NCBI RefSeq assembly: GCF_000011465.1 | Contig: NC_005072.1 | Span: 360,001 to 392,000, forward strand | Reading direction: 5' to 3' | Length of the DNA stretch: 32,000 nucleotides | Origin: Prochlorococcus marinus subsp. pastoris str. CCMP1986 | Lineage (GTDB): Bacteria > Cyanobacteriota > Cyanobacteriia > PCC-6307 > Cyanobiaceae | Shown: one piece after another, positions 1,951 through 23,483 of the stretch | Position numbering within the stretch: the first letter of the stretch is position 1 | Layout: every line of letters begins with the position of its first letter | Made by a program: the position numbers and the translations under genes | Notes under the pieces: model-generated | Told to the model about the DNA's origin: nothing | Database searches by the model: none | The model's input: the letters and a program-made list of their open reading frames with translations, nothing else

Positions 1951-2733
1951 TTATTTAACAGCGAAAGTTACTCCCATTACGGCAGTAATATCTTTCTTTA
2001 TAGTAGACGTGTCATAAGATCCCCAGCTGCTTACACTTGTGGAATTAGGAACTGTTATCTGAAAAACTCCAGTATTAACTCTTTTCAAACCACCTACTTC
2101 AGAACCTGCCTGTAAAGCAATTGCCTCGGCTCTTACTCTTGCATCTTTCGCTGCCTTAGCGAGCATATCAACTCTTTTATCAGCAAGTTTTGAATAGGTA
2201 AATTCAGGACGACTTGGTTTTACTCTTACACCTTTACCAAGCAATTCTGTTATCTGACTATGAGTCTTCTGGATGTTATAAACATCCCTACTCTCAATCT
2301 CAATATTCTGATAAGTGATCCATTCAGTTCTAATGATTTCATTAGTCTTTGGATGCTTAGTTTTATATTCACTAATACTTGCAGGACCAAGATAAACGTC
2401 TTGCTTCACGCTGTCCTTAATTCCATTGGCGTTAAGAAATTCCATTGTCTTGTTTATAGACTGTTTATGCTTGGTAAATGAGTCAATCTGAGTTTTACCT
2501 GAGGTCTTTACCTGGACAGACCATTTTGCTATATCACTTTCAAAACTCTCAGTACTAGCACCAGTAACAGTAATCGTATTCTCCACAGTCCTGAACCCTC
2601 TGACAAGAACAGTGGATGCACCTATAAAACCCCCAAGAGACAAAACTGCCATTGCAAATACGAGTGGCGGGGTACGGCGAATAATACTCAGAGAATCGCC
2701 TGGAAGCGACCTGAGATATTTAATGATTTTCAT
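1951..2733 (-). CDS. SIMPL-domain (DUF541) protein with an N-terminal membrane anchor
   Basis: A 260-aa ORF. It has an N-terminal TM segment (PPLVFAMAVLSLGGFIGASTVLV). This is followed by 'ITVTGAS...' and a C-terminal 'KAAKDARVRAEAIALQAGSEVGGLKRV' block typical of SIMPL/26-kDa periplasmic antigen proteins. Confidence 0.7.
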   Translation of the reverse strand: MKIIKYLRSLPGDSLSIIRRTPPLVFAMAVLSLGGFIGASTVLVRGFRTVENTITVTGASTESFESDIAKWSVQVKTSGKTQIDSFTKHKQSINKTMEFLNANGIKDSVKQDVYLGPASISEYKTKHPKTNEIIRTEWITYQNIEIESRDVYNIQKTHSQITELLGKGVRVKPSRPEFTYSKLADKRVDMLAKAAKDARVRAEAIALQAGSEVGGLKRVNTGVFQITVPNSTSVSSWGSYDTSTIKKDITAVMGVTFAVK

Positions 2734-3006
2734 TTTTATAAGTATGTGTGTAGGAACTTTTTAACAGCTGAACCGAAAGGAAAATATTTTTAAAAACCCT
2801 GATCTCAAATCCTTCAGTTCTATTTGGCCATTAAGGGAAACATCTTAAGTTGATGTGCCAATTTTGGAGTCGGTTACTAATATTGCCAAATGAAATAATG
2901 ATACGCAAGAAGTATATTTGTATTATGAATAAAGGTAATTAGAATTAATTACATAAATAATATTTTTACTGATGAAGAGTTAATAGATTTAGTCTCTAAA
3001 ATTTAT

Positions 3007-5496
3007 CTAAATTTCAAATTCTTCTCTTGAAATTACAGTGTCGAAAAGTCCAACTTCATCATGAGTATTTTTTGTTAGACCGATATAACTAAGGCTCGAG
3101 TCCTCATATCTTTTGAAATTATAAATAGCATCATTCATCAAACTACTATTAAAGACATTTAGGCTAATAAGTAAATCAAAATCTTTGAGACTAAGACCAG
3201 TAACCTTTTTAAAAAGTCCTGGCTCTAATTGTGTAATTACATCTTTTAAAGACCTTTCTCTGTAATCAGTTAAATACATGAATATTGGAATTCTGGTAGC
3301 AAACTTGATAAGTTGCTTTTGAATTTTTTTTCTTAGATTGATAAATTCTTTTTCCTGTTCTGTTAGTTGTTTTTTTTCTTTTTTATTTAATTCCTCCTCA
3401 TTAGCTTTTGTTTTTAAATTTTTTATTGATTCTGAGGAATTGATTATCGAAGTTATATCCTCATTTAGACTCCTAAATCCTTCAATAGCTTGTAAGGCTT
3501 TCATTGCTTCATCGTTACCCATAAGCCTTTCTAAAGTTGAATTATCTACGTTAACTAGAAGCGCACTTTCCCAACGACGAGCTAAAAGAGTAGCGGTTGT
3601 TCCGCTTATTGTCATGTCCAAAATTGATGTAGCATCTACCTCAATCATTGAGCTACCGTCATAAGATAAAACTGGTAAGAATTTTATAAACTCACCAACT
3701 TTTTTTTCAGGATCATTTTCTTGATAATTCAAGTTACAACTATAGTCTGAAATCTGAGTTAGAGCTCTGTTAGGAGCAAAATCAAATACATAACAATTAT
3801 GCTTTAGGACGTCTTTCTCATTAGGCGATTTACTATCTGGATTTTCTATTTCCCATGGTGTTTGAACTCTGAAGGCAGATTGAAAATATGTTTCGGGACT
3901 TGATATATTTCTAAGCATGAATATCCCACTCCAGGGTTTAACAGAGACACCAGTTGTTAATTTTCCGCAAGAAAGTGTTATTGATTTTGACTCAAGTGGA
4001 TTATCCATAGCATCCCTTACAGGCCATAAGGCTTTCAGACCAAGACCTGCTTTATTACCTGCAGCAACAATAATTTTATAACTATGAAAAAAAGTATTTT
4101 GTCTCTCTTGAAGTAAATTTCTCATCGCAAAACACGATGAAACATTTGGTAGGTACCAAAAAGTATGGCTAAGTAGTGATAATAATCTACTATCACTAAA
4201 AGGATAGGGTGGTTTCTTATCTTTTAATTTTAAAGTTGTTTTAATTTCTTCTAAATTTTGACCTCTAATAAGATCTAACCATTTTTGTACTTCATCTTTA
4301 TAAATAAATTCAGAAGCATCGTCCTCATATTTTGCAGAGAAGAAGGTATTGAGATCAAATTCATCAAATTCCCCCTCATTTGCAACTTCTAAAATATAAT
4401 CCGGCACTTTATAAGTCATTAAAATCATTCTTGGTAATGATGAATATGGATTTTTATCACCTACCCAATTATTTTTTGCATTTTGTTCATCTGAATAGGT
4501 CCAATTAAAAATTTGTTCTTCAATGAATTCTCCAGTTGATATTGCTCTGAAAGGCGTTCCTGAAAGATATAAATAAAAATTTGTTGAGATTGGCATATTT
4601 TCCTCTTTAAAAAAAGATATACCTTCACCCTCTTGCAGCTTTATTTCTTTATTTTCTTCCCCCTCAAATAGCTCTTTCGCTCTTTCTCTCCACGCCCCAT
4701 AATGATATTCATCTAGTATTACGCAATCCCATTTTATGGTGTGAACCCATTCATTTTTTGGTTTAATTCCCCCTGCATTGTTTTTTCCAAGAAAATCTTG
4801 AAATGATCCAAAACAAACAAAAGGTTTACTTTTATCAGCTTCTCCAAATGACATCCCATTTCTGTTTATAAATTGCCAACCTTCAAAATCAATATGTGTA
4901 AGTAAATCCTCTTCCCACGCACTTTGAACTGCTGGTTTAAAAGTTAAGACAAGCACTTTCGTCCATTTCATTTCTAAAGCCAACTTATAAGCTGCAAAAG
5001 TTTTACCAAATCTCATTTTTGCGTTCCATAAGAAATGGGGAACTTTATTAGATTTTTCCTTTATGAAACCATTTATATAATTTTTTGTTTTCTCTATCGC
5101 TTCTTTTTGTTCTGGACGAAGTCCAAAATTATTTGGCCTGCCCTCTACTCCAATATCTCCAAAAGCAACTAGATCTATAGCAGCATTCACATCAGTTACT
5201 TTGCAGCGGAACCACTCACCGGCTGGATTAGGAAAACCTTTAGCTCTTAAAATTTTATGAACATCTTTATCAATAAAAGAAGTCCCATCTTTCCTAATAG
5301 CACTTCTATCTAAATGAATAGTATATGTTTCTTCTCCGGGAGTAATTATGGGATACTGTGCTTCAACTCTTTGCTTAACAGTATTTTTAGATGTGAATCC
5401 TACTTTTAATAAACCTTGATATTGCGGATGTGAATCAGAATAAGCATATATCTTGGGATTCCCTTCATACCTTTTATAGAAAAAGTCTTTAGCCAT
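3007..5496 (-). CDS. Fusion of a GIY-YIG/T5orf172-like nuclease domain to an SF2 (ResIII-type, DEAH-like) helicase; candidate restriction/effector subunit
   Basis: 829 aa. The N-terminal ~115 aa carry a T5orf172/GIY-YIG-like pattern: 'KIYAY', 'LLKVGFT', 'VKQRVEAQ', 'VHKILRAKG....GEWFRC'. The helicase motifs that follow are 'LRPEQKEAI', Walker A 'KMRFGKTF', Ia 'VLVLTFKPAV', II 'VILDEYHYG', III 'LYLSGTPFRA' and VI-like 'YFQSAFRVQTP'. The C-terminal ~200 aa are unassigned and include a Lys/Glu-rich coiled-coil stretch. The start codon lies 1 nt after the upstream gene's stop (TAA T ATG). Confidence 0.85.
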   Translation of the reverse strand: MAKDFFYKRYEGNPKIYAYSDSHPQYQGLLKVGFTSKNTVKQRVEAQYPIITPGEETYTIHLDRSAIRKDGTSFIDKDVHKILRAKGFPNPAGEWFRCKVTDVNAAIDLVAFGDIGVEGRPNNFGLRPEQKEAIEKTKNYINGFIKEKSNKVPHFLWNAKMRFGKTFAAYKLALEMKWTKVLVLTFKPAVQSAWEEDLLTHIDFEGWQFINRNGMSFGEADKSKPFVCFGSFQDFLGKNNAGGIKPKNEWVHTIKWDCVILDEYHYGAWRERAKELFEGEENKEIKLQEGEGISFFKEENMPISTNFYLYLSGTPFRAISTGEFIEEQIFNWTYSDEQNAKNNWVGDKNPYSSLPRMILMTYKVPDYILEVANEGEFDEFDLNTFFSAKYEDDASEFIYKDEVQKWLDLIRGQNLEEIKTTLKLKDKKPPYPFSDSRLLSLLSHTFWYLPNVSSCFAMRNLLQERQNTFFHSYKIIVAAGNKAGLGLKALWPVRDAMDNPLESKSITLSCGKLTTGVSVKPWSGIFMLRNISSPETYFQSAFRVQTPWEIENPDSKSPNEKDVLKHNCYVFDFAPNRALTQISDYSCNLNYQENDPEKKVGEFIKFLPVLSYDGSSMIEVDATSILDMTISGTTATLLARRWESALLVNVDNSTLERLMGNDEAMKALQAIEGFRSLNEDITSIINSSESIKNLKTKANEEELNKKEKKQLTEQEKEFINLRKKIQKQLIKFATRIPIFMYLTDYRERSLKDVITQLEPGLFKKVTGLSLKDFDLLISLNVFNSSLMNDAIYNFKRYEDSSLSYIGLTKNTHDEVGLFDTVISREEFEI

Positions 5497-5497
5497 A

Positions 5498-6988
5498 TTA
5501 TTCCATTTTCATAATGGTCTTTTCAATAAAATTTATTTCCTCACTATCTAGTTCATACTTTGAATAAAGCTCGTTATCAGAGTACTTTTTATTCCAATTA
5601 AGTTTTGGTACAAATGCAAATCTTCCTTTTGTTATATGTTGAGAAACAGTCATCTGAGCAATTAGAAATCTAGTAAATTTAAGTTTTAGAAATGCTTCTA
5701 AATTCTCAGCCATTTCTTGGTTATCAAAAGTATCTATAACTAAATAAGTTTCAGTACATACTGTATTTGGAGGTGCTAAAAATAATTTTGCTAAAACCTT
5801 TCTCTCCCCATTTTTATTTGGTTGTCCAGCATGATCATAGGAAATGTTAGAGGTTAAGACTTTCCATTTTGGTATTAATTCTTTATTGTTAAGCACCTCA
5901 CCTGAAGATATTTTGCCCTCACCTTTACTTGTTATGAGATTTAAGTCTCCCGTCTCTTTTGCTTTCACTGTTGTTGTCAAACCAAATGCTGCTCGACTAC
6001 TAACGACAGAATCCAAAGTTAATTCATTTTTGGTTCTGATTTTTTTAATTATGTTTGAAGCTATTCCAAACCTTATAAAGGTGTCGAATTCATTTAATTT
6101 TCTATAAGAAATTTGTTTCTCATCTCTCCAGTTATTTATTACTTCAGTTAAGCCTTCATAATCTCTTTGCCAATGAAAATAGCAAACCCCACCTGCTATA
6201 TCAACTCCTGGAAAACAATCTTTTGCTTCAGGATAATCAACAATTTTTTTTATTCTTTTATCATTCAACATTTCATTTCTGAATTCGTCTAATCCTTTAC
6301 CCCCTGCATACCACCTTGATGGAATAATCATTAATAAATGTCTAGGATTTAATTTCTTCGCCTGTTCAATAAACCTATTGTAAATTGGTTTAGCACTCTT
6401 ACCAAAACCACTATCAGATATTTGATAAGGGGGATTGCCAATAACTACATCAAATTTCATATCAAAAAATAAATTAGGATTATCTTTATGAATGAATGGG
6501 TAAGCATATGTTTCTAACTCATCATTCCTATTGTAGGCATCCTGCGGGGCTCCACAATATTTACATCGTGAATTTACCCATAAATGATTTGATCGACTAT
6601 AAAAAATATTTCCACTCTCATTTACTGATGCATCAAAAAGAGAATATTTGCTATCAGCTTTTTTGGAACAGTACAAAGTCCTCCTACCCATGAGGCTTGT
6701 TAGTTCAGTTGTCGCGATTCCAAAAACTTGATTTTTAAAAATATTCTCAATACGTTTCGTCTTCTCAGGTAATGTATTTACTAATTGCTTATCTAATCTT
6801 TTAGCTATTTCCCTTAAAAATATTCCTGATTTCAAGCATGGGTCTATAAACGTAGAAGTTTTATCCTCAAAAATTTCTTTTGGCAAACTGTCCAAGATTT
6901 CATTGGCTAATGATGGAGTGGTAAAGACTTCATCGCTACTCAAATTAGCTAAACAATTTAGTACATCAGGATTATGTCTCTTTTTCAT
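5498..6988 (-). CDS. Gamma-class N6-adenine DNA methyltransferase (Eco57I-type methylase domain) with a C-terminal target-recognition region
   Basis: 496 aa. Motif X is 'DEVFTTPSLANEILDSLP' and motif I is 'FIDPCLKSGIFLREIAKRL'. An insertion contains the Cys cluster 'LYCSKK...RCKYCGAP'. The catalytic motif IV is 'FDVVIGNPPYQ'. The tail 'YELDSEEINFIEKTI' is typical of this methylase family. Confidence 0.9.
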   Translation of the reverse strand: MKKRHNPDVLNCLANLSSDEVFTTPSLANEILDSLPKEIFEDKTSTFIDPCLKSGIFLREIAKRLDKQLVNTLPEKTKRIENIFKNQVFGIATTELTSLMGRRTLYCSKKADSKYSLFDASVNESGNIFYSRSNHLWVNSRCKYCGAPQDAYNRNDELETYAYPFIHKDNPNLFFDMKFDVVIGNPPYQISDSGFGKSAKPIYNRFIEQAKKLNPRHLLMIIPSRWYAGGKGLDEFRNEMLNDKRIKKIVDYPEAKDCFPGVDIAGGVCYFHWQRDYEGLTEVINNWRDEKQISYRKLNEFDTFIRFGIASNIIKKIRTKNELTLDSVVSSRAAFGLTTTVKAKETGDLNLITSKGEGKISSGEVLNNKELIPKWKVLTSNISYDHAGQPNKNGERKVLAKLFLAPPNTVCTETYLVIDTFDNQEMAENLEAFLKLKFTRFLIAQMTVSQHITKGRFAFVPKLNWNKKYSDNELYSKYELDSEEINFIEKTIMKME

Positions 6989-7616
6989 TTTTATTAATCT
7001 TCAGGAAATGAATTAAATCAAACTCAGCAATAGGCTCTGGTATAAAAGCTAATTCACCAAGATCTGAAAACAATGGCAATGCATTTAGTTCTTCATTATT
7101 AATGATTGATTTGAAAGAATAGTCAAGTCGTTTCACTTTATATTTGGATATTAAACTCCATTTTGAAAAAATAATAGGTGTATCACTTGAAGGGAGCTTT
7201 AAAGTCAATGCATCCCCCCAAGTAATATTTTTTGATAAAAGAAATTTAATTACTCCAAAGAAATCAGTATCTTCTTTGTATTTATTCTCGTAAAATTTTT
7301 TTATTTTTTTAAAAAGTCTTAATTGACATTTAGAAACATTTTCCTTCTGGATATCAATACCATAAAGGGATGAGACAGCAAGAAATATATCTATTTGATA
7401 ATTTAATTTTATTGATTTATTTAACAATGAAATTGACTTAAGCTTTCTATCAAGTACTTCTATTAAAAAATTGCCATCGCCACATGCAGGCTCTAAAAAA
7501 GTAGAATCTAATCTTCTTGTTTCTTCATCAACAATATCCAGCATTCCATTAACTTCGTTTGATGAAGTGAAAACTTCTCCATATTTTTCAATTTTTGTTT
7601 TAATATTCTTAATCAT
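6972..7616 (-). CDS. Methyltransferase-like half protein: SAM-binding motifs X and I-III are present, catalytic motif IV (NPPY) and the TRD are absent. It is either a decayed gene or an accessory subunit.
   Basis: 214 aa. Motif X is 'GEVFTSSNEVNGMLDIV', canonical motif I is 'FLEPACGDGNFLIEVL', motif II is 'LYGIDIQ' and motif III is 'NITWGDAL'. Where FDxxxGNPPY is expected the sequence reads 'DTPIIFSKWS'. The 3' end overlaps the start of the next gene by 17 nt (6972-6988). Confidence 0.65.
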   Translation of the reverse strand: MIKNIKTKIEKYGEVFTSSNEVNGMLDIVDEETRRLDSTFLEPACGDGNFLIEVLDRKLKSISLLNKSIKLNYQIDIFLAVSSLYGIDIQKENVSKCQLRLFKKIKKFYENKYKEDTDFFGVIKFLLSKNITWGDALTLKLPSSDTPIIFSKWSLISKYKVKRLDYSFKSIINNEELNALPLFSDLGELAFIPEPIAEFDLIHFLKINKNEKET

Positions 7617-7821
7617 TCCGTAATTCTAAAATTTCGAAAAATTTATACAACTAAGTTTTTAAAAATATTACCTTTATCTACATACTATAAAAATTTAAAA
7701 TGTGGGAAAAACGTGGGCAAAAGTCAACCTCTAGTGAACATTTACGAACAATACAAAACACTAGCATATCGCTACTAATAAGGTTATGACTAATAATTCT
7801 AGTTATAGCTTATTTTGCACG

Positions 7822-7868
7822 GTTGCTTTGGGAGCACTAGGTCGCAGGTTCCAATCCTTTAGCCCTGA
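7822..7868 (+). pseudogene. Decayed tRNA-Pro(UGG)-like 3' fragment; candidate integration (att) scar
   Basis: The sequence GTTGC-TTTGGGA-GCACT-AGGTC-GCAGG-TTCCAAT-CCTTT-AGCCCTGA reads as a tRNA 3' portion. It has an anticodon loop UU-UGG-GA with G37, a variable loop AGGUC and a T-loop TTCCAAT. The stems carry mismatches and no matching 5' acceptor or D arm lies upstream. Confidence 0.45.
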
Positions 7869-8001
7869 CTCTAGAAATCCAAGTTATAAAAAAGCTTCCT
7901 TAGACTCACTTTTTTTAGATAATTATGATGAAATACGTTTCCATCATAATCCCAAAAAAAATGGAATCTCTATTTTTTTTTGATAACCATTAACACTATT
8001 T

Positions 8002-8220
8002 TTAATTGTTGTAATTTTGCATCATCGTATCCCGAAATTTCCTTTCGATGGGTAAGGTTTGAGAGGTTCTTTTGTTTGCAGAACCTAGTCCTTCGTTATA
8101 AACATATAAAAGTTTGGTCCTACCGCTATTTTCGCCATTCACTCTAAATCCACGACCAAAATTAGTGCAGATATTTTTTCTTAATTCTTTTTCCCAAGAA
8201 GTGCTGTTAGCACTAGTCAT
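8002..8220 (-). CDS. Hypothetical protein (72 aa)
   Basis: An ORF between the tRNA-like scar and tRNA-Thr. No confident family. There is a faint resemblance to the beta-rich N-terminal DNA-binding modules of integrases ('GFRVNGENSGRTKLLYVY'), which is not sufficient for a call. Confidence 0.35.
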   Translation of the reverse strand: MTSANSTSWEKELRKNICTNFGRGFRVNGENSGRTKLLYVYNEGLGSANKRTSQTLPIERKFRDTMMQNYNN

Positions 8221-8347: not shown

Positions 8348-8419
<72 letters not shown>

Positions 8420-8429
8420 TGAAAAAAAG

Positions 8430-8511
8430 TGGGCCGGGTTGGATTTGAACCAACGTAGGCAGAGCCAGCGGATTTACAGTCCGCCCCCTTTAACCACTCG
8501 GGCACCGACCC
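8430..8511 (-). tRNA. tRNA-Tyr (anticodon GUA), class II with a long variable arm
   Basis: The reverse complement is GGGTCGG...GCGGA-CTGTAAA-TCCGC, then a long variable arm, then GTTGG-TTCAAAT-CCAAC and CCGGCCC-A. All stems pair. It lies 10 nt from tRNA-Thr and is probably co-transcribed with it. Confidence 0.95.
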
Positions 8512-23168: not shown

Positions 23169-23254
23169 TGTGTAAACACTACATTGAATTGAAATCTTTT
23201 CCATTCGATTAATAACATCAGAAACTCCTCATATACAAATTTCTGATCACTAAA

Positions 23255-23286
23255 CACTCCGATTCTTAAGAATTGGGTGTTTTTTT
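23255..23286 (+). terminator. Rho-independent terminator
   Basis: The hairpin is CAC(T)CCGATTC-TTAA-GAATTGGGTG: 10 bp with one bulge and one G-U pair. It is followed by TTTTTTT. Confidence 0.65.
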
Positions 23287-23386
23287 AATGCAATTAAGTC
23301 TGAAGAGGTATAACTGTCATATGTGACAATTAAGTAATATTACTCACCCCCTTCCACGAAAAAGAAATATATGTAATAGTTTATTG

Positions 23387-23483
23387 TTGTGTGTAGGAGA
23401 GTTTTTACTGAAACAGTGGAAACAAGGAAACACTTGATTCGGTAAAACCAGAAAAAGACCTCTAGAAATAGGGGTCTTTTTTT
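23387..23483 (+). ncRNA. Yfr2-family-like small RNA (5' end approximate)
   Basis: Three tandem GAAACA motifs are present: UGAAACA at 23409-23415, GGAAACA at 23418-23424 and GGAAACA at 23426-23432. The RNA ends at a terminator hairpin AGACCTC-TAGAAATA-GGGGTCT plus a T-run (23456-23483). A -10-like TAATAG lies at 23374-23379. The predicted length of ~95 nt matches the Yfr2-5 family known from Prochlorococcus. Confidence 0.55.

Follow-up and report, generated by a model that had tools for sequence, protein, structure and literature searches.

We analysed a 32,000-nucleotide stretch of the genome of Prochlorococcus marinus subsp. pastoris CCMP1986 (strain MED4; NC_005072.1, positions 360,001 to 392,000), referred to here as the window, and within it three adjacent minus-strand genes that we call A, B and C. 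Together these genes probably encode a three-subunit, ATP-dependent restriction-modification (R-M) system that resembles a Type ISP enzyme split into separate polypeptides. The evidence for this reading comes from the structure of the genes, their domains and intact motifs, their linkage across genomes, natural gene fusions, the constant separateness of A, purifying selection, and the position of the genes in a genomic island. All coordinates refer to the window unless another record is named, and all features within the three genes lie on the minus strand.

Gene A occupies positions 6972-7616 (214 amino acids), gene B positions 5498-6988 (496 amino acids) and gene C positions 3007-5496 (829 amino acids). 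The listing of open reading frames (ORFs) for 3007-7616 contains exactly these three, all in minus orientation. A and B share 17 nt (6972-6988), and the B/C junction reads GAA TAA T ATG, with the stop codon of B at 5500-5498, one spacer base at 5497 and the start codon of C at 5496-5494. The initial annotation of this DNA had described three packed genes with a 17-nt overlap and a 1-nt gap, and both the ORF listing and the junction itself bear this out; only its coordinates for TAA T ATG, 5496-5500, are off by a trivial two bases. The GC content of the cassette is 0.30-0.33, the same as in the remainder of the window. Identical proteins are on record for MED4 as CAE18845 (A, labelled in GenBank as a 'possible uncharacterized DNA methylase'), CAP16345 (B, 'Type III restriction system endonuclease') and CAE18843 (C, 'possible uncharacterized restriction enzyme, interrupted-C'). 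These putative restriction and methylase labels date from 2003, and the R-M concept at this locus is therefore not new. The identical A-B-C context is found in one 1.66-Mb genome and in many sequencing runs.

Protein B is predicted to be a complete gamma-class N6-adenine DNA methyltransferase of the Eco57I family, with motifs in the order X-I-II-III-IV followed by a C-terminal target-recognition domain (TRD). It covers the full length of the Pfam Eco57I profile (PF07669; E = 4.4e-34), and residues 178-495 match two PADLOC profiles, PDLC03375 and PDLC03626, both at about 1e-41. Motif X (EVFTTP) lies at 6914-6931, motif I (FIDPCLKSGIFL) at 6815-6850 and motif IV (GNPPYQ, residues 184-189) at 6422-6439. 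Among 62 homologues, the family keeps motif X in the form EVFTPP, a variant motif I (DPxCKSGxF), a Cys/His cluster and an invariant GNPPYQ. Residues 276-425 (5714-6163) have a mean pairwise identity of 0.38, compared with 0.69 for residues 1-275, and the block profile shows the same drop. Because this region is hypervariable, we presume it to be the TRD. At least 8000 homologues of B were found, named as adenine-specific DNA methyltransferases. Searches of the PDB with B, by phmmer and by profile and including the Type ISP structures LlaGI (5ffj) and LlaBIII (4xqk), returned no match. The conserved Cys/His cluster (residues 106-146; 6551-6673) has the pattern YCSK...H...CxxCG, with C107, H135, C142 and C145, and forms an insertion between methylase motifs II and IV that looks like a small zinc-binding element.

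Protein C combines an N-terminal T5orf172 domain, which belongs to the GIY-YIG clan, with a superfamily 2 (SF2) helicase or translocase core. The T5orf172 domain spans residues 17-110 (5167-5448) and matches PF10544 with an E-value of 6.8e-9 and a score of 36.6 bits (cutoff 20); the same N-terminal region also matches MUG113, another profile of the GIY-YIG clan. A match to ResIII covers residues 124-278 (E = 4.7e-7), likewise above the Pfam cutoff, within an SF2 core that extends over 3697-5127. The core contains Walker A (RFGKTF, 4996-5013), motif II (DEYH, 4702-4713), motif III (SGTPF, 4549-4563), motif V (TGVSV, 3940-3954) and motif VI (QSAFRVQT, 3859-3882). In an alignment of 25 diverse C homologues (67-85% identity), 390 columns are at least 95% conserved. 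The SF2 motifs GKT (164-166), DEYH (262-265), SGTP (312-315), V and VI are invariant, as are Y17, Y19, K31, G33, R43, H80 and E94 of the T5orf172 domain. The latter include the hallmarks of GIY-YIG enzymes, namely the Tyr residues of the first two strands and, in R43 and E94, the equivalents of the catalytic Arg and the metal-binding Glu. A T5orf172 protein encoded by phage ICP1, in which the catalytic Arg and Glu are retained, has been characterised as an origin-directed nuclease. No match to the PD-(D/E)xK family was found in the N-terminus of C, and no nuclease match of any kind in its helical C-terminus.

An AlphaFold2 (AF2) model of C, built from the 25-sequence alignment, gives the T5orf172 domain predicted local distance difference test (pLDDT) scores of 75-87 and places helices at residues 677-799. 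The closest folds found with Foldseek are generic SF2 translocases of double-stranded DNA (Snf2, XPB, ZorD and SauUSI), with LlaBIII at rank 50. The helical C-terminal region (residues 645-800; 3097-3564) is probably a coupler or docking region, because fused relatives run straight from this region into a methylase. The domain assignments proposed initially for all three proteins (a SAM-binding A that lacks NPPY, a complete B with a TRD-like region, and a C that carries both a GIY-YIG-type domain and a ResIII-type motor) are thus upheld by the Pfam and motif evidence, and the nuclease-like and helicase parts of C are each recovered by profile search. A distant relative of the C motor (21% identity over residues 155-691) occurs in the Synechococcus phages MA01, MA10, ME01 and MC09 (PP110483-PP110486), where annotations name it a type II R-M restriction subunit or Eco57I.

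Protein A is best described, from its motifs, as a paralogue of a methylase that binds S-adenosylmethionine (SAM) and is catalytically inactive. It has motif X (GEVFT, 7566-7580), motif I (FLEPACGDGNFL, 7464-7499), motif II (LYGIDI, 7350-7367) and motif III (WGDALT, 7203-7220), with FSKWS (7155-7169) at the position where NPPY would stand. Across 58 homologues the family keeps motif X, motif II as YGIDI and motif III as WGDALT, and the motif I pattern FLEPACGxGNFL is invariant. The NPPY site is replaced by a conserved FSEWS, which reads FSKWS in MED4, and none of the 58 homologues contains an NPPY-like motif anywhere, where the catalytic motif IV would have the form (D/N/S)PP(Y/F/W). Pfam profiles of N6-adenine methyltransferases match A only below their cutoffs and only with their N-terminal part, and PADLOC profiles of Type I methyltransferases match its N-terminus weakly. 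Alignment of A with the N-terminus of B by hhalign gives a probability of 97% (E = 1e-10), and the paralogy spans the N-terminal 100 residues of B. The AF2 model of A has a pLDDT of 76, with weak fold matches to the N-terminal lobe of CamA and to the methylase domain of LlaGI.

A appears from these comparisons to be a constant third subunit that is always separate. It has about 5300 homologues, and all of the 120 listed are 155-252 amino acids long, with none fused to another domain. We considered that A might be the remnant of a degraded gene, or the front half of a methylase broken by a frameshift, and rejected both possibilities in view of the large standalone family, the purifying selection on A and the complete N-terminus of B. 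The early description of A as a methyltransferase-like half therefore holds as to its SAM motifs and missing NPPY, and fails in so far as A would complete B, which is complete without it. A programmed frameshift that joins A to B was set aside: an ordinary overlap of start and stop codons suffices, and no fused A-B protein is present among the matches listed. The nearest functional analogies for A are the inactive paralogues DNMT3L, which acts with DNMT3A, and METTL14, which acts with METTL3. Both have lost the catalytic motif and are strictly co-inherited with an active methylase. These pairs are eukaryotic, unrelated to A in sequence and outside restriction systems, and we use the analogy as a hypothesis.

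We next consider how constant the trio is across genomes. When one genome per GTDB species was scanned, relatives of C turned up in at least 570 stretches, of which the best 80 were examined; these have 63-71% identity to C and come from nearly every bacterial phylum, as well as from Thermoplasmata and Woesearchaeota. An exhaustive search for relatives of C yielded 3835 clusters at 50% identity. Linkage was counted in the 53 loci with at least 4.2 kb of sequence upstream of C. Genes A, B and C stand in the same order and on the same strand in 49 of these; the other four loci are degraded and contain a transposase, an integrase next to a truncated B, or inserted cargo. The co-occurrence of B and C homologues that the initial annotation would lead one to expect is thus present, and it extends to A. 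Median identity to the window across loci is 44% for A, 49% for B and 65% for C. The conserved motor, set beside the hypervariable presumed TRD of B, points to an R-M-like mode of evolution. Among Prochlorococcus variants all three genes are under purifying selection, with ratios of nonsynonymous to synonymous substitution rates (dN/dS) of 0.03-0.05 (C), 0.20 (B) and 0.35 (A). Since the A-B-C order is kept in 49 of 53 loci, the division between B and C is the common, conserved state and no interruption; the notion that B and C are the pieces of a pseudogene, implied by the label 'interrupted-C', was rejected on this ground.

The junctions between the genes are also conserved. A and B almost always overlap, and B and C mostly abut or overlap, an arrangement consistent with translational coupling. 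The A/B overlaps in 58 loci are almost always 8, 11, 14, 17, 20 or 23 nt long, which sets B in a constant reading frame with respect to A. This relation is probably a matter of ordinary translational coupling, although its constancy across phyla is striking. In about 20 loci (L002, L003, L009, L010, L013, L015, L018, L023-L025, L029, L034, L045, L054, L056, L064, L076 and L079 among our numbered loci) the B/C junction is occupied by 1-2 kb of unrelated cargo: Bro-N/KilA-N-like genes, DUF1016/YhcG genes of the PD-(D/E)xK type, RhuM-like genes, toxin-antitoxin-like genes and nucleotidyltransferase-like genes. This junction seems to attract embedded accessory genes, which may have roles in defence. 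Cargo inserts are common inside Type I R-M operons.

Natural fusions tie B and C together. The PADLOC profile PDLC03626, a Type IIG model of 1359 positions, aligns with C (up to residue 766) over positions 152-809 and with B over positions 1011-1359, with E-values of 1.8e-33 and 2e-41, respectively. Fused proteins of 1100-1460 amino acids consist of a complete C followed by a complete B, so that T5orf172, ResIII, Eco57I and TRD succeed one another in a single chain. At the fusion joints, positions of the C profile up to about 800 abut positions of the B profile from 7 to 20. We found no A module inside the C-B fusions. In two fused metagenomic loci (L087 and L088) and on the Enterococcus faecium plasmid pAT02-a, an A-like gene of 198-248 amino acids instead overlaps the start of the fused gene. 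By the Rosetta-stone argument these fusions imply that B and C act as one complex, which on this comparative evidence is very probable. The initial annotation had proposed a split, Type ISP-like module, and the alignment of C and then B to one profile, along with natural C-B fusions in the Type ISP order, agrees with that proposal.

Homologues are present in 32 Enterococcus and 9 Lactococcus plasmid records, and in the Enterococcus plasmids listed the matches fall in genes annotated as Eco57I-domain proteins. On pAT02-a (NZ_CP097062.1, 4220-9296), a 1445-amino-acid fusion and its overlapping A-like gene, annotated as 'N-6 DNA methylase', adjoin optrA, a gene for oxazolidinone and phenicol resistance. 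A full A-B-C set is also carried by the human-gut Caudoviricetes phage NatCom_35866 (PV036449.1, 1685-6916; L176), in which all three proteins match the hidden Markov models (HMMs) of the families. The C protein of this phage has an extra C-terminal extension and reaches 974 amino acids. A phage-borne A-B-C may serve superinfection exclusion.

In the mechanism that we propose, B would read a short, probably asymmetric site through its variable C-terminal TRD and methylate an adenine to N6-methyladenine (m6A), which would mark host DNA. C would dock on B through its helical C-terminal region. At an unmethylated site C would hydrolyse ATP, its DExH SF2 motor would translocate along double-stranded DNA, and its N-terminal T5orf172 domain would cut or nick the DNA away from the site. 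If the analogy with Type ISP enzymes holds, two complexes may have to converge before DNA is cut. A would most likely form a heterodimer with the catalytic lobe of B, in place of the second methylase protomer of a Type I M2 or Type III Mod2 assembly; from there it might assist or activate methylation, or else make restriction depend on SAM status. We infer complex formation, translocation and cleavage, methylation of one strand, a part for A and an anti-phage function from the features described above, and we give the specific role of A as a partner of B roughly even odds. A broader proposal is held only tentatively, and we consider it doubtful: that A-B-C is an unrecognised class of ATP-dependent R-M system, among the most widespread of its kind, in which restriction would require a dead SAM-binding A that partners the methylase and gates a T5orf172-armed motor.

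We compared the trio with the established types of R-M system. Type ISP enzymes have the domain order nuclease, helicase, gamma-class methyltransferase and TRD. LlaGI and LlaBIII share with A-B-C the same four activities and, once B and C are fused, the same order from N- to C-terminus, with an SF2 ATPase between nuclease and methylase, a helical region that joins motor and methylase, and a gamma-class N6-adenine methylase followed by a C-terminal TRD. They differ in four respects. Their nuclease is of the Mrr or PD-(D/E)xK type, whereas C has a T5orf172/GIY-YIG-type domain; they are single polypeptides, whereas B and C are separate in the window and in most genomes; they have no counterpart of A, the obligate inactive methylase paralogue; and neither B nor C has detectable sequence homology to LlaGI or LlaBIII.

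The likeness to Type IIG enzymes consists in the match of B and C to consecutive parts of PDLC03626 and in the Eco57I Pfam family of the methylase. In the characterised Type IIG enzymes (Eco57I, MmeI, BpuSI and BcgI) there is no motor driven by ATP, and a PD-ExK domain makes the cut at a set distance, whereas the A-B-C family has a helicase and a GIY-YIG-type domain, which in MED4 are on a separate chain from the methylase. The 'IIG' label of the PADLOC match therefore reflects R-M fusion only. In common with Type III systems of the EcoP15I-like Mod2Res kind, the trio has separate subunits for methylation with specificity and for motor with nuclease, predicted ATP dependence and a predicted asymmetric site, and C matches ResIII. 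Type III Mod is a beta-class methylase with an internal TRD, and Type III Res has a C-terminal PD-(D/E)xK nuclease. B, in contrast, is gamma-class with a C-terminal variable region, and the nuclease-like domain of C is N-terminal and of the GIY-YIG type, for which reasons A-B-C is not a Type III system; the Type III models of PADLOC match none of the cassette proteins. Type I is excluded because there is no S subunit: no HsdS-type specificity gene is present in the cassette or in its relatives. The early judgement that this is not a standard Type I, II or III layout is in keeping with the gamma-class B, the N-terminal GIY-YIG-type domain and the missing S gene.

The closest described analogue of A-B-C is the YeeA/YeeB/YeeC cluster. 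The operon dnmA(yeeA)-yeeB-yeeC has the same functional ingredients (a nuclease-less gamma-class methyltransferase with TRD, an SF2 helicase and a T5orf172 protein) and likewise occurs in defence islands. Its helicase and T5orf172 proteins are encoded by separate genes downstream of a large MmeI-like methylase, whereas the two are fused in C, and the MED4 methylase is the compact, Eco57I-family B accompanied by an extra pseudo-methylase A; this comparison is drawn from published descriptions of the cluster. Morgan et al. (2009) proposed that clusters of the YeeA/YeeB/YeeC type are R-M systems that methylate one strand and have their helicase and their GIY-YIG nuclease on separate subunits, and Sisakova et al. 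(2012) mention related R-M enzymes that have both helicase subunits and nucleases of the GIY-YIG kind. In Vibrio crassostreae, a cluster of methyltransferase, helicase and T5orf172 genes is reported to protect against some phages. The novelty first claimed for the MED4 locus was accordingly overstated, as its genes already bore R-M labels, defence HMMs call it Type IIG, and related clusters appear in the literature of 2009 and 2012. We found no published description of the exact three-component architecture, of an obligate inactive methylase subunit, or of the large trans-domain distribution, and it is these three features that are new here. To a restriction-enzyme specialist the module will not be very surprising, but it is a well-defined and testable system in a genetically recalcitrant organism of ecological importance.

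The setting of the cassette in the MED4 genome is that of mobile DNA. Just upstream of the operon lie tRNA-Thr(GGT) (8348-8419, minus strand), an island-seeding tRNA, and the adjoining tRNA-Tyr(GTA) (8429-8511, minus strand), which forms part of a conserved flank. Two Prochlorococcus metagenome contigs, L091 (1-447) and L094 (1-513), match the gene order of the window across aroQ and the tRNAs, and their similarity to it ends exactly at position 8348. Beyond the 3' end of tRNA-Thr both carry unrelated DNA, and several other contigs end just upstream of aroQ, which suggests that the tRNA-Thr edge is a hypervariable junction that breaks assemblies. The metagenome scan based on aroQ gave few usable contigs; most contigs break at the island edge. 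The cassette itself (2937-7915, minus strand) is 98.3% identical at the nucleotide level to three ocean contigs (L173, L174 and L175), and the DNA beyond both of its ends is different there.

In the ocean contigs a tRNA-Pro element of 45-66 nt recurs on both sides of the cassette, and its copies are clean 3' halves of tRNA-Pro(UGG) (177-221 and 6830-6878 in L173, 5120-5168 and 5358-5423 in L174, and 4009-4053 in a further contig, L172). The window contains a degenerate 3' half, with anticodon arm, T-arm and acceptor strand, at 7820-7888 on the plus strand; this remnant was recognised only by alignment to the cleaner environmental copies, and both Rfam and ARAGORN were negative for it. It is likely an att-like integration scar, as in tycheposon-type elements. 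No second copy of the remnant is present in the window, and no direct repeats of tRNA-Thr or tRNA-Tyr that could act as att sites were found. According to Hackl et al., seven tRNAs, Thr-ggt and Pro-tgg among them, seed the islands of Prochlorococcus, and partial tRNAs are the marks of past integrations. The synteny break at tRNA-Thr and the tRNA-Pro remnants match these criteria, and it is therefore well supported that the cassette, which we read as horizontally mobile cargo, lies in the tRNA-Thr(GGT) island of MED4, as the island location given in the initial annotation implied. In the scan of species representatives, the best relative listed has only 71% identity, and the 80 loci listed include none from a Prochlorococcus genome, which suggests that the cassette is rare in Prochlorococcus and fits a flexible island gene.

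Several observations weigh against an active restriction enzyme, some in general and some in favour of a particular alternative. The AF2 model of C is poor as a whole, with a mean pLDDT of 55, and is reliable for residues 10-260 only. Sequence and profile searches of the PDB with C gave no similarity to the solved motors of Type ISP, Type I or Type III enzymes, and a scan for promoter and terminator consensus sequences gave no signal above chance. It is solely from the conservation of residues that we infer the nuclease activity of C, A has a wholly conjectural role, and we found no published biochemistry or phage-challenge test for the exact A-B-C family.

The most probable alternative, though one that we think unlikely, is that A-B-C serves for epigenetic or orphan methylation, or is the relic of an R-M system: B methylates DNA and may affect expression while C no longer restricts. 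The same was proposed for Bacillus subtilis, where the analogous dnmA-yeeB-yeeC does not restrict phage or plasmid and the methylase is an orphan regulator. In MED4, moreover, A departs from its family in 13 of the 66 columns that are highly conserved, with E152K (in the FSEWS motif) and R164L among the changes, and C was originally annotated as 'interrupted'. Yet the ORFs of A, B and C are all intact with every catalytic motif present, the split between B and C is a conserved state, several ocean samples contain the cassette at 98% identity, and the low dN/dS of C is unlike that of a dead gene.

Somewhat less probable again is a defence or conflict module that acts without classical cleavage, in which the motor of C blocks replication or remodels DNA in the manner of BREX or DISARM and the T5orf172 domain binds DNA, or in which modified DNA is the target. 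In its first description T5orf172 was a DNA-binding domain, and the best-matching folds for C are those of Snf2-type remodellers and of ZorD. BREX-type systems, moreover, pair a gamma-class methyltransferase with one-strand methylation and probable translocation, and A has weak PADLOC matches to PglX. However, no further BREX or DISARM components occur in the cassette or its conserved relatives, and PADLOC matches neither B nor C to these systems. The domain order is that of the Type ISP nucleases, and the invariance across phyla of R43, E94 and the Tyr residues fits catalysis, since binding alone would not need such conservation. A selfish cargo of tycheposon-like elements, plasmids and phages, whose main role is maintenance of a mobile element by addiction or competition between elements rather than phage defence of the host, would suit the presence of the module on plasmids and in a gut phage, the partial tRNA-Pro att-like repeats in an integration-hotspot island and the patchy trans-domain distribution at 64-71% identity, but it is very improbable as the whole account, being compatible with an R-M mechanism and no replacement for it, and the 5-kb MED4 cassette has no integrase or replication gene.

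A predicted three-subunit R-M system in MED4 bears on practical as well as biological questions. MED4 is the main laboratory strain of Prochlorococcus and is still not transformable. Laurenceau et al. regarded MED4 as likely to have R-M, and counted R-M systems among the remaining hurdles to transformation. The cassette is a concrete and intact candidate for such a barrier, and if the doubtful proposal of a widespread, A-gated R-M class were true, the intact MED4 copy could contribute to the genetic intractability of the strain. Gating by A, if real, would be a regulatory principle not described for any R-M type. A complete module predicted to target DNA in defence circulates in wild high-light Prochlorococcus at 98% identity within tRNA-seeded islands, which would connect phage defence with the dynamics of islands. 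For a family of such enormous size and unusual conservation we found no characterised member; it would make a tractable model for the coupling of methylation to motor-driven restriction. It is informative for R-M biology through the exchange of the nuclease for T5orf172, the existence in nature of both split and fused forms and, most of all, an A that is inactive and always separate.

The remaining features of the surroundings are minor. The spacer between tRNA-Thr and A contains two small ORFs that are genes in the NCBI record, at 8002-8220 (minus strand, 72 amino acids) and 7786-7983 (plus strand, 65 amino acids). Neither has a family match, and the latter overlaps the tRNA-Pro remnant and is probably spurious. 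Downstream of the cassette (1951-2733, minus strand, in the window and 12764-22490 in L081) are a SIMPL-domain gene, many tiny ORFs, two DUF3303 genes and genes for cyanate lyase and a cyanate ABC transporter. These genes may be further island cargo. Two cyanobacterial small RNAs, Yfr10 (82.7 bits) and Cyano-1 (61.8 bits), lie 90 nt apart on the plus strand at 23217-23296 and 23387-23454 of the window.

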